From assembly GCF_050920415.1 (NCBI RefSeq), contig NZ_CP169309.1: DNA of 64,000 nt; one strand, given 5' to 3'. Positions 23,589 through 24,323 of this stretch are shown piece by piece. This DNA comes from Escherichia coli. Lineage in GTDB: Bacteria; Pseudomonadota; Gammaproteobacteria; Enterobacterales; Enterobacteriaceae. Within the stretch, counting starts at the first letter, position 1; each line of letters starts with the position of its first letter. The position numbers and the translations under genes are program-made. The notes under the pieces are model-generated. The model saw only the letters and a list, made by a program, of their open reading frames with translations, searched no databases and was not told the DNA's origin.

Positions 23589-23676
23589 GGTGAGGTGTCC
23601 GAGTGGCTGAAGGAGCACGCCTGGAAAGTGTGTATACGGCAACGTATCGGGGGTTCGAATCCCCCCCTCACCGCCA
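23589..23676 (+). tRNA. serX: tRNA-Ser (GGA anticodon), 88 nt with long variable arm and encoded CCA
   Basis: GGTGAGGTGTCCGAGTGG ... GGTTCGAATCCCCCCCTCACCGCCA recognised as E. coli serX; acceptor stem pairs. Confidence 0.92.
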
Positions 23677-24323
23677 TCTTTAAAGAAGAGCTCGTACGAA
23701 AGTACGGGCTTTTTTTTCGTATATTGCACACGCCGGGGGGATGAGAAGCCCCGACAGGGGTTCGACAACTGGCGACAGCCAGTTGGACAGACCGTGAACG
23801 CAGTGAGCGGGCTGCCCGCAGGGCGAGCGAAGCGAGTCAATCCCCCCCTCACCGCCATCTTTAAAGAAGAGCTCGTACGAAAGTACGGGCTTTTTTTTCG
23901 TATATTGCACACGCCGGGGGGATGAGAAGCCCCGACAGGGGTTCGACAACTGGCGACAGCCAGTTGGACAGACCGTGAACGCAGTGAGCGGGCTGCCCGC
24001 AGGGCGAGCGAAGCGAGTCAATCCCCCCCTCACCGCCATCTTTAAAGAAGAGCTCGTACGAAAGTACGGGCTTTTTTTTCGTATATTGCACACACCGGGG
24101 GGATGAGAAGCCCCGACAGGGGTTCGACAACTGGCGACAGCCAGTTGGACAGACCGTGAACGCAGTGAGCGGGCTGCCCGCAGGGCGAGCGAAGCGAGTC
24201 AATCCCCCCCTCACCGCCATCTTTAAAGAAGAGCTCGTACGAAGGTACGGGTTTTTTTTTTCGTATATTGCACACACCGGGGGATGAAAAGCCCCGACCG
24301 GGGTTCGACAACTGGCGACAAAC
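23660..24323 (+). repeat. tRNA-linked tandem repeat: 181-bp unit, ~3.7 copies, each starting with the last 17 nt of serX
   Basis: unit starts at 23660, 23841, 24022 and 24203 (period exactly 181); copies near-identical, last copy diverged and truncated near 24323. Confidence 0.9.
23686..23718 (+). terminator. serX intrinsic terminator
   Basis: stem agctcgtac / gtacgggct (one mismatch) with GAAA loop, then eight T; this hairpin recurs in each 181-bp repeat copy. Confidence 0.7.

Follow-up and report, generated by a model that had tools for sequence, protein, structure and literature searches.

[quoted passage not shown] That paper credits the description of the family to Egan & Landy (1978) and Rudd (1999). 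Its strain table records the deletion of one set of repeats, rsX1-4 (1096182-1096779), in a strain devoid of all 22 TLRs; the main text gives no phenotype description for this strain, and subtle defects are possible. The 5S-linked members RrA, RrB and RrF are single-copy per operon, lie between two terminators, finish with a repeat of the 3' terminus of the stable RNA that precedes them and are made by terminator read-through (PMC8144298).

The window, a 64,000-nt stretch of E. coli DNA (contig NZ_CP169309.1), possesses a 181-bp tandem array downstream of the tRNA-Ser(GGA) gene serX. This array is the already catalogued RtT-type TLR set rsX1-4 and does not represent a novel finding, a point absent from the first-pass annotation, as was the contrast with the tyrT units, which lack the strong predicted terminator that opens each serX unit. 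Taken as a whole, the locus is, with high confidence, best explained as a serX-linked TLR array of the RtT family that is homologous to the tyrT repeats and dispensable.

Architecture of the serX array and its relatives

The array and its surroundings are composed of the following features:

23526..23554, + strand: sigma-70-like promoter candidate for serX (TTGACC, 17-nt spacer, TAAATT)
23589..23676, + strand: serX, tRNA-Ser(GGA) gene (ARAGORN; Rfam tRNA, 53.8 bits)
23658-23676: last 19 nt of serX, taken as the reference for the 3'-end copies
23677..23857, + strand: TLR unit 1 (181 bp; TRF; Rfam RtT 41.4 bits, E 8.3e-6), with predicted terminator 23690-23717, RtT-like core 23721-23857 and tRNA 3'-end copy 23839-23857
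23858..24038, + strand: TLR unit 2 (181 bp; same sequence as unit 1; Rfam RtT 41.4 bits), with predicted terminator 23871-23898, RtT-like core 23902-24038 and tRNA 3'-end copy 24020-24038
24039..24219, + strand: TLR unit 3 (181 bp; differs from units 1 and 2 by one substitution; Rfam RtT 41.7 bits), with predicted terminator 24052-24079, RtT-like core 24083-24219 and tRNA 3'-end copy 24201-24219
24220..24320, + strand: TLR unit 4, truncated and more divergent (~95 % identity over the part in common), with predicted terminator 24233-24261 (+ strand, T10 run)
24324..25780, - strand: dgcT-like GGDEF (diguanylate cyclase) gene, convergent; context, outside the repeat

Tandem Repeats Finder (TRF) placed the array at 23658-24320 with a period of 181, 3.7 copies and 98 % matches (score 1268), and the 181-bp spacing was reproduced by a second repeat search; both bear out the recurrence at 23660, 23841, 24022 and 24203 that had been proposed for the unit. 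The array consists of three full units of 181 bp each and one truncated unit, the first of which begins at the base 3' of the tRNA CCA (23676/23677, + strand). Each full unit is arranged in the order of a predicted intrinsic terminator, a ~137-nt structured core and a 19-nt copy of the tRNA 3' end. The 17-mer tccccccctcaccgcca does start where the first-pass annotation had placed it, but the segment in common with the tRNA is 19 nt (AATCCCCCCCTCACCGCCA) rather than 17; it occupies the last 19 nt of serX and recurs at the three 3'-end copies listed above, such that the serX units carry the 18-19 bp of the upstream tRNA 3' end by which TLRs are recognized. The core of unit 4 stops inside hairpin 2, with the break between CAACTGGCGACA and AACTCAATC, and the same junction is found in strains 2020CK-00188 and Ecol_276.

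Comparison with the K-12 set rsX1-4 revealed the same locus, the same tRNA-side flanks (ghrA-ycdX-ycdY), the same 181-bp unit, three full units plus a partial one, and the same 19-nt tRNA 3' end, in addition to a few substitutions between the units (TCTTT vs TATTT; GACAGGGG vs GACCGGGG). The two arrays differ at the right-hand junction, where the truncated unit 4 of the window adjoins the stop codon of the dgcT-like gene, an arrangement present in 79 of 5,426 genomes, whereas in K-12 the last unit is cut off at an earlier point, with ycdU and IS3 beyond it. The Rfam family RtT (RF00391) matches all three full cores over the full-length model (1-130), with E-values of 7e-6 to 8e-6. The scores of 41.4, 41.4 and 41.7 bits are 3-4 bits under the gathering score of 45, whereas the orthologous units of K-12 (46.3 bits, with the PGAP label "RtT sRNA") and EA7, which differ by a few bases, reach 46.3-50.8 bits and pass it. 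It is only because of this shortfall that the closest complete genome carries no annotation of the array; annotation pipelines label the serX array in some strains and miss it in others, and the value of the present assignment lies in the correct labelling. Moreover, a conserved 3' module (GCCCGNAGGGCGAG ... GAGTNATCC) is present in the three full units and in the K-12 Ser, Lys, Arg and Pro TLRs, which serves here as a criterion for TLR membership derived in this analysis rather than a published definition.

The parallel with the tyrT locus drawn in the first-pass annotation turned out to be one of homology. The serX units align with the K-12 tyrT/tyrV units through the GGATGAGAAGC..CGAC...GGTTCGAC core and the tRNA-like 3' end; together with the full-model RtT match (E ~7e-6) and the PGAP label of the K-12 units, this alignment identifies the serX units and the 178-bp tyrT/tyrV repeats as true homologues. 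Both are tandem units that each close with the 3' end of the upstream tRNA, both share the homologous core, including the two elements of the 3' module, and in both a G-rich segment on the 5' side pairs with the tRNA-like 3' strand to form the closing stem. They differ in the sequence of the middle hairpins and in the T-stem-like segments, which are Ser-type (G/C) at serX and Tyr-type (GAAGG/CCTTC) at tyrT/tyrV. In addition, the serX units open with a strong predicted intrinsic terminator, whereas the tyrT units have none, and termination at tyrT is Rho-dependent. Similar to the 5S-linked RrA, RrB and RrF, the serX units lie between two terminators, here predicted ones, and end with a repeat of the upstream stable RNA 3' end, but they form a tandem array instead of a single copy per operon.

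Predicted fold and transcription of the units

Each unit opens with GCTCGTAC-GAAA-GTACGGGC followed by a run of T residues, and the predicted hairpin consists of an 8-bp GC-rich stem and a GAAA loop, with an energy of -12.0 kcal/mol for the stem alone and -20.4 kcal/mol with the A/U extension. The run of T8 that had been assigned to every copy is found in the first three units, whereas unit 4 has T10. The extended helix shows compensatory change in 8 of 16 pairs across genera. These elements are predicted to be canonical intrinsic (Rho-independent) terminators; the unit terminator is missing from the output of a simple scan for + strand terminators.

The minimum-energy fold of a single unit (unit 1) has an energy of -80.7 kcal/mol and a z of -4.9. 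In the core, the closing stem GGGGGGAU/AUCCCCCC surrounds three hairpins and a GCCC-GNA-GGGC mini-hairpin. Hairpin 1 (CAACTGGC/GCCAGTTG), the first of the two internal inverted repeats pointed out earlier, keeps its pairing across genera, whereas the second, gcgggctgcccgc, appears in the single-sequence minimum-energy fold and lacks comparative support; conservation thus extends to one of the two named hairpins and to the overall fold. In the 3' half of the core, comparative support was found for the pairings CAGACCG/CGGGCTG and CCC/GGG. The minimum-energy model of this half, including the GCGGG/CCCGC hairpin pointed out earlier, was rejected, with zero compensatory change and pairing down to 61 %. 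In an 18-sequence alignment, RNAalifold resolved only the terminator, the closing stem, hairpin 1 and the GCCC/GGGC hairpin, and the middle of the core was assessed with explicit structures beyond the RNAalifold output. Across genera, 89.8 % of the cells are paired in the conserved fold, which has both-sided changes at 21 pairs compared to 8.6 in shuffles (reached in 0 of 500 shuffles) and a covariation score of 0.226 compared to 0.05-0.10 with slid partners. In at least 12 named genera, compensatory changes maintain the pairing of the terminator and the internal hairpins, which argues against the core being simply neutral DNA.

The sigma-70-like site upstream of serX, which has 9 of 12 consensus matches in a consensus scan and lies ~35 nt 5' of the tRNA, may act as the working serX promoter. 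Transcription from this promoter would mostly halt at the first terminator, and the strong terminator at the start of every serX unit would keep most transcription out of the repeats. By analogy with RrA/B/F, which likewise lie between two terminators, rare read-through into unit 1 would yield an RNA that ends at the next terminator and may be trimmed at its tRNA-like 3' end by the tRNA 3'-maturation enzymes, and the chance of reaching the successive units would drop steeply. The likely effects of the array are redundant termination of serX transcription and, on the other strand, a weaker terminator for the convergent dgcT.

The serX array is dispensable, because a K-12 strain without all 22 TLRs has been built and a full serX-type core is missing from 38 % of 5,426 complete E. 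coli genomes; 3,361 of them (62 %) contain one or more full cores, with a median of 2 and a maximum of 11. The conserved core may mean that the term "dispensable by-product" understates a conditional role. It is rather unlikely, though, that the array is a dedicated small-RNA factory, in which every unit gives rise to a stable trans-acting RtT-like RNA, copy number sets the dose, and the product acts, for example, as a sponge of proteins or RNAs, the role suggested for RrA/B/F. The pairing of the core kept by compensatory changes and the z of the single-unit fold are consistent with such RNAs, as are the reads and differential expression over RtT arrays reported for Klebsiella (RNA-seq) and the finding that RrA/B/F are processed RNAs binding Hfq and CsrA in vitro (PMC8144298). 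However, RrA/B/F contain GGA motifs, with both predicted and shown binding of CsrA and Hfq, whereas the 19 tRNA-linked TLRs score <0.01 as CsrA binders in the same predictor (PMC8144298). Moreover, a strong predicted terminator precedes every core, a consensus scan of the + strand found no promoter within the units, and RtT reads account for ~0.0008-0.0009 % of E. coli RNA-seq. Further points against a dedicated product are the range of 0 to 11 copies, the absence of any full core from 38 % of the complete genomes and the successful construction of a strain without any of the 22 TLRs (PMC8144298), in addition to the original rtT phenotype, which was retracted, as reported in PMC8144298.

A possible T-loop cassette and integration at serX

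Units across Gammaproteobacteria resemble the T-arm-to-CCA segment of a tRNA whose T loop holds a conserved cassette, and are matched to the upstream tRNA. The cross-species scan of such cassette units covered at least 120 loci as a sample rather than a census. Among the matches listed, the 3' tail follows the upstream tRNA, with an identical 12-nt tail in 120 of 139 units from 14 isoacceptor types. Among the same matches, long-form units have a cognate sense T-stem element in 50 % of cases, compared to 3 % for non-cognate stems; for the antisense element, the corresponding figures are 60 % and 3 %. Two other forms of the cognate-tracking test were set aside: 10-mers with 2 mismatches were too permissive (49 % non-cognate matches), because all T arms share GGTTCGA, and exact 4-mers were too strict and were replaced by a later test. 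The cassette is also found within otherwise complete tRNA-Lys genes of Photorhabdus (L017), and one E. coli unit (L129) is precisely without it.

We consider it unlikely that the TLRs, the serX array among them, constitute a distinct and widespread class of tRNA-matched elements in Gammaproteobacteria, each with a conserved structured cassette of ~65-75 nt placed precisely in the T loop of a tRNA 3' segment, with TTCGA and ATCC on either side, and in most cases with an antisense copy of that T arm ahead of it. In this reading, TLRs may be something other than inert duplications or scars of integration, and the above features, together with the compensatory changes in the core fold, would fit either a cassette that moves or homes into T loops or, alternatively, an RNA that exploits or titrates the machinery of tRNA T-arm recognition and processing. 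Crossover at the common GGTTCGA can also account for chimeric units and for those without a cassette. The TLR family has been without a known function since it was first described in 1978, and its conserved fold and tailoring to the host tRNA suggest that a proper functional study is worthwhile; the window adds nothing unique to this question.

The last 14 bp of serX and serW are the direct-repeat core of the OI-43/48 and SRL-PAI islands (PMC3064760), and this 14-bp core, CCCCCTCACCGCCA, is carried by every unit of the array. Together with the highly variable right flank and an island of strain 150 that sits directly 3' of the serX CCA, it makes the units conceivable as scars or decoys of P4-family integrase sites, with the tRNA 3'-end copies as att cores. 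Such a reading is nevertheless quite improbable. The units contain no island DNA, but a conserved structured cassette that is common to TLRs at other tRNAs and, like the fold, is unrelated to any island sequence. Homologous units are located 3' of many other tRNAs, in the spacers of the lysT and arg operons and 3' of 5S rRNA. In the 10 sampled serX loci, the island of strain 150 is the sole one, and none is found at a unit-internal core or between units. A search of the unit against 50,697 phage records returned zero matches, leaving a phage origin unsupported. Plasmid carriage is likewise unsupported: 40 records of a plasmid collection match the unit, and the matches listed are largely multi-megabase, chromosome-sized records, in addition to Klebsiella and Salmonella homologues with 80-89 % identity.

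Copy number, coding potential and flanking gene

The serX array varies in length from strain to strain, as had been anticipated in the first-pass annotation. The 10 sampled serX loci contain 0, 1, 2, 3 or 6 full units and display three types of right-hand junction, each of which was seen with different copy numbers, and one of which spans 0 to 6 full units. The internal units of a strain carry the variants of that strain, and the truncated terminal unit is the divergent one. This cross-strain pattern suggests that the array may expand and contract via unequal homologous recombination or slippage between the units. The term recombination hotspot is apt in a descriptive sense, in view of the three junctions with varying copies, an IS3 at a unit boundary in strain B and the use of the serX 3' end by islands. 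The array forms a recombination-prone, copy-variable segment, with serX, a hotspot of integration, and the biofilm genes dgcT and pgaABCD as neighbours, and its repeated homology, together with the repeated 14-bp integrase core, would be likely to destabilize the serX 3' flank structurally.

It is very improbable that the copy number in the window is an assembly artefact, in which the array was expanded or collapsed. Tandem 181-bp repeats at 98-100 % identity are tough for short-read assemblers, and the copy number of the serX array in short-read assemblies is untrustworthy; however, the closest complete genome and K-12 both have the same count of three full units plus one partial, three is a common count among complete genomes, and the unit variants are internally consistent. 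With the array kept in these genomes, and with other lengths in thousands of complete genomes, the repeat is not a general artefact of assembly. We give next to no credence to the repeat coding for a protein, be it the 43-aa GTG-start ORF of each unit (+ strand) or a 157-aa ORF (- strand), even with the historical Tpr ORF of tyrT and a PGAP "hypothetical protein" beside a related serW-linked unit in one strain, since the GTG starts have no Shine-Dalgarno sequence, the ORFs cross terminator hairpins and tRNA-like ends, cross-genus substitutions keep the base pairing and not the reading frame, indels are frequent, and the PGAP ORF of L015 lies largely over CRISPR repeats; the ORFs called across the serX array are likely spurious.

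At the right-hand side of the array, the dgcT-like gene is split in the window by a frameshift, which leaves two ORFs (307 and 178 aa) that lie in different frames; the corresponding CDS of L002 is intact (456 aa). Compared with L002, one nucleotide is missing from an A run near 25255 and three are missing near 25207.

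Position and anatomy of the serX repeat array

The 64-kb window contains a single tRNA gene, serX (ARAGORN), and a single array reported by Tandem Repeats Finder, for which a second repeat search gave the same register. The array starts inside the tRNA gene with its final 19 nt (AATCCCCCCCTCACCGCCA), which confirms the 181-bp tandem repeat at the tRNA 3' end described in the first-pass annotation. The features are as follows.

23526-23554, + strand: candidate serX promoter, the only good sigma-70-like candidate, upstream of serX
23589-23676, + strand: tRNA-Ser(GGA) gene serX
23658-24320: tandem array, period 181, 3.7 copies, 98 % matches, score 1268 (Tandem Repeats Finder)
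23839-23857, 24020-24038 and 24201-24219: copies of the tRNA 3'-terminal 19 nt
24220-24320: truncated unit 4, ~95 % identity to the other units
23721-23857, 23902-24038 and 24083-24219: RtT (RF00391) matches, one per full core (the ~137-nt RtT-like part of the unit), from a permissive Rfam scan

Units 1 and 2 are identical in sequence, and unit 3 differs by one substitution. The genes ycdY, ycdX and ghrA, all on the - strand, flank serX upstream, and a convergent GGDEF gene followed by pgaA lies downstream of the array; this is the serX neighbourhood of E. coli. The GGDEF gene, which is dgcT-like (24324-25780, - strand), is broken into two ORFs, 307 and 178 aa long, that lie in different frames. 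Strain 2020CK-00188 has the gene intact, at 456 aa; against it, 1 nt is missing from the window in an A run near 25255, and 3 nt near 25207. The split gene is either a pseudogene or the product of a homopolymer sequencing error.

In each unit, the CCA is followed by AAAGAAGAGCTCGTAC-GAAA-GTACGGGCTTTTTTTT, a GC-rich stem of 8 bp that is capped by a GAAA tetraloop and followed by a U8 tract (U10 in unit 4). The predicted folding energy of this terminator stem is -12.0 kcal/mol alone and -20.4 kcal/mol including the A/U extension. In the - strand orientation, the predicted hairpin is less stable (-9.3 kcal/mol; -5.1 in unit 4), with CUCUUCUUU coming after it. The remainder of the unit is predicted to adopt a multibranched fold, with a z of -4.9 against shuffles. 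The promoter scan found no sigma-70-like site on the + strand within the units.

Kinship with RtT and the catalogued tRNA-linked repeats

The three RtT matches are full-length with respect to the model and score 41.4-41.7 bits (E 7e-6 to 8e-6), slightly below the gathering score of 45. Among the 5,426 complete E. coli genomes searched, orthologous units of K-12 and many other strains are labelled "RtT sRNA" by PGAP and score 46.3-50.8 bits. The nearest genome, 2020CK-00188, has an identical array arrangement that carries no annotation, which fits with its units lying below the gathering score, like those of the window. Elsewhere in the window, four Rfam matches exceed their gathering scores: Ysr251 (194 bits, 32519-32712), ES056 (17899-17990), naRNA4 (CssrE, 33856-33933) and ES036 (CssrF, 49957-49999).

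Alignment of the 178-bp units of the K-12 tyrT-tyrV locus against the serX units revealed a common GGATGAGAAGC..CGAC...GGTTCGAC in addition to the tRNA-like 3' end. They differ in the T-stem-like segments, which are Tyr-type in the tyrT units and Ser-type in the serX units; moreover, the tyrT units lack the stem-loop and U tract that follow the CCA in the serX units. Together with the full-model RtT matches, this turns the parallel with the tyrT repeats, drawn earlier from architecture, into homology. Units extracted from all K-12 loci of tRNA-linked repeats (TLRs) bore out that the family members are alike: a 3' module of a hairpin, GCCCGNAGGGCGAG, a short hairpin, GAGTNATCC and a tRNA-specific tail is common to the Lys, Arg, Pro, Tyr and Ser TLRs.

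As cited in PMC8144298, TLRs were first sighted by Egan & Landy in 1978, and Rudd (1999) tallied 22 of them at ten K-12 loci. [quoted passage not shown] The strain table of the same paper includes a strain in which every one of the 22 TLRs is missing, one of its deletions being "rsX1-4 (1096182-1096779)" (PMC8144298). The set rsX1-4 is this serX array in K-12. The array is thus an already known element within the RtT family; it holds little interest as a discovery and is useful as an annotation correction, and it is a reminder that an old family is still without known function.

Copy number, conserved pairing and proposed working

Ten serX loci were compared, and the number of full units varies between strains.

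Full serX units by strain
0: H15; Ecol_276; strain 150 (island directly 3' of the serX CCA)
1: NT1F31; B-StaR
2: VTB97585v
3: window; K-12; 2020CK-00188
6: EA7

The right-hand junctions fall into three types (ycdU, DUF2726/phoH and dgcT). The dgcT type of the window is present in only 79 of the 5,426 complete genomes. Every junction type occurs with differing copy numbers, which indicates that expansion and contraction are internal to the array and independent of its flank. A census of the same genomes with a cassette-specific 123-nt query (the cassette being the conserved structured segment of the TLRs) detected 8,006 full cores in 3,361 genomes, with a median of 2 and a maximum of 11 per genome; MG1655 has 3. 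Copy number therefore varies between strains, as the first-pass annotation had anticipated. The array can be absent: a full core is missing from 38 % of the genomes, and a K-12 strain without any of the 22 TLRs has been constructed. The internal units of one strain carry its own variants (TCTTT and GACAGGGG in the window, TATTT and GACCGGGG in K-12), a pattern that reads as a signature of recent amplification or homogenisation. That the array is an assembly artefact is no better supported.

OI-43/48 and SRL-PAI, which encode P4-family integrases, have the final 14 bp of serX/serW as their direct-repeat core (PMC3064760). This core is present in every serX unit, and among the ten loci no island was seen inserted after an internal unit; a reading of the units as integration scars is no better supported. 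In B-StaR (L016, ~3124-3189), an IS3 lies within the second serX unit at ...GCGAGTCA|TGATCTTACC, the exact expected start of the tRNA 3'-end copy. Some strains have a serX-type TLR 3' of serW (L015, serW-clpA spacer, 2720-3178), where K-12 has the terminator only. A "hypothetical protein" of PGAP starts within this serW-linked unit; the ORF is probably spurious, as much of it runs over four CRISPR-DR4 repeats (2876-3083). Reading the serX units as a coding region is no better supported.

Covariation was analysed in 18 aligned tRNA-Ser(GGA)-linked units. The tested structure comprises the terminator hairpin, a closing stem, hairpin 1 (CCCC/GGGG), hairpin 2 (CAACTGGC/GCCAGTTG), hairpin 3 (CAGACCG/CGGGCTG) and CCC/GGG, and 89.8 % of its cells are paired. 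Pairs changed at both sides number 21, compared to 8.6 ± 1.8 in shuffles (0/500 shuffles had as many), and the covariation score of 0.226 drops to 0.05-0.10 on sliding the partners by 1-3 columns. Of these two controls, which agree, only the slide control corrects for relatedness. Compensatory change is found in 6/7 pairs of hairpin 3 and 8/16 of the terminator helix. Of the two internal hairpins named earlier, on whose conservation the interpretation had been staked, one is thus conserved, as is the overall fold, and that interpretation is supported. For the 3' half, the fold predicted from a single sequence was rejected as a model, given the absence of compensatory change across the 18 units.

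Alongside the unit anatomy, family membership, copy-number dynamics across strains and conserved pairing, we propose how the array may work. Transcription of serX would mostly stop at terminator 1, and rare read-through would yield an RNA reaching terminator 2 and trimmed at the tRNA-like 3' end; the read-through and 3' trimming proposed for RrB (PMC8144298) provide a precedent. Later units would be reached with steeply falling probability, and array length would change by unequal recombination. The stop codon of the dgcT-like gene (24324-24326) adjoins the array, and unit 4, with its weaker reverse hairpin, may aid termination of this convergent gene. RtT reads make up ~0.0008-0.0009 % of one E. 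coli RNA-seq sample (locus unspecified), and reads over RtT arrays are reported in Klebsiella. This evidence for expression is thin, and a dedicated sRNA array is no better supported than the read-through scheme.

T-arm architecture of long-form repeats

A scan of species-representative genomes with a pattern of the TLR 3' module gave at least 120 loci. The matches listed include many Enterobacterales genera and, beyond them, Chromatiaceae, Thioalkalivibrio, Halieaceae, Marinobacterium, Salinisphaera, Amphritea and other Gammaproteobacteria. Besides E. coli, at least 12 named genera have units linked to tRNA-Ser(GGA), some in arrays of at least three units. The scanned loci hold at least 165 module matches, 139 of them with a same-strand upstream tRNA; among the matches listed, the 12-nt tail is identical to this tRNA in 120/139 units. 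Tail-matched isoacceptors comprise at least 14 types (Lys, Ser-GGA, Ser-GCT, Ser-CGA, Arg-ACG, Arg-CCG, Arg-TCT, Pro-CGG, Pro-TGG, Tyr, Gln-CTG, Gln-TTG, Glu and Asp).

To the left of the cassette, long-form units have the cognate T-stem 5' strand and TTCGA; to its right come ATCC, the T-stem 3' strand, the acceptor 3' strand and CCA. The unit therefore reads like the stretch of a tRNA from T arm to CCA, with an insert of 65-75 nt in the T-loop. An antisense copy of the cognate T arm usually lies upstream of the cassette (K-12 loci L004-L008, scan loci L017-L136), for example ATTCGAACCAGC after tRNA-Arg(TCT) and ATTCGAACCCTC after tRNA-Ser(GCT). Among the 107 long-form units in the matches listed, the sense element is cognate in 50 % and the antisense element in 60 %, each against 3 % for non-cognate stems.

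Photorhabdus caribbeanensis has a tandem array of 176-bp units (L017, 9040-9668; L018, 1-560) directly downstream of intact tRNA-Lys genes, in which every unit consists of a tRNA-Lys gene that is complete apart from a 64-nt cassette lying exactly between the T-loop TTCGA and ATCC. In E. coli SCPM-O-B-8794 (L129, - strand), the first unit after tRNA-Ser is a serX-type unit of 106 nt that precisely lacks the 75-nt cassette, with the junction ...GGGGTTCGA|ATCCCCCCC... (also written ...GGGGTTCGA|ATCCCCCCCTCACCGCCA), and a normal 180-nt unit follows. This short unit could be the product of the tRNA T arm crossing over with a TLR sense half, or of precise cassette loss. Because a tRNA-TLR crossover at the common GGTTCGA can explain both forms, they are no proof of an origin by insertion. 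A few pattern matches have no adjacent tRNA or tRNA-like tail (L043 of Brachybacterium, L132 of a Haloferula MAG, L033, L093, L108, L109 and L121); probably these are degraded copies, or they match the 20-base pattern by chance.
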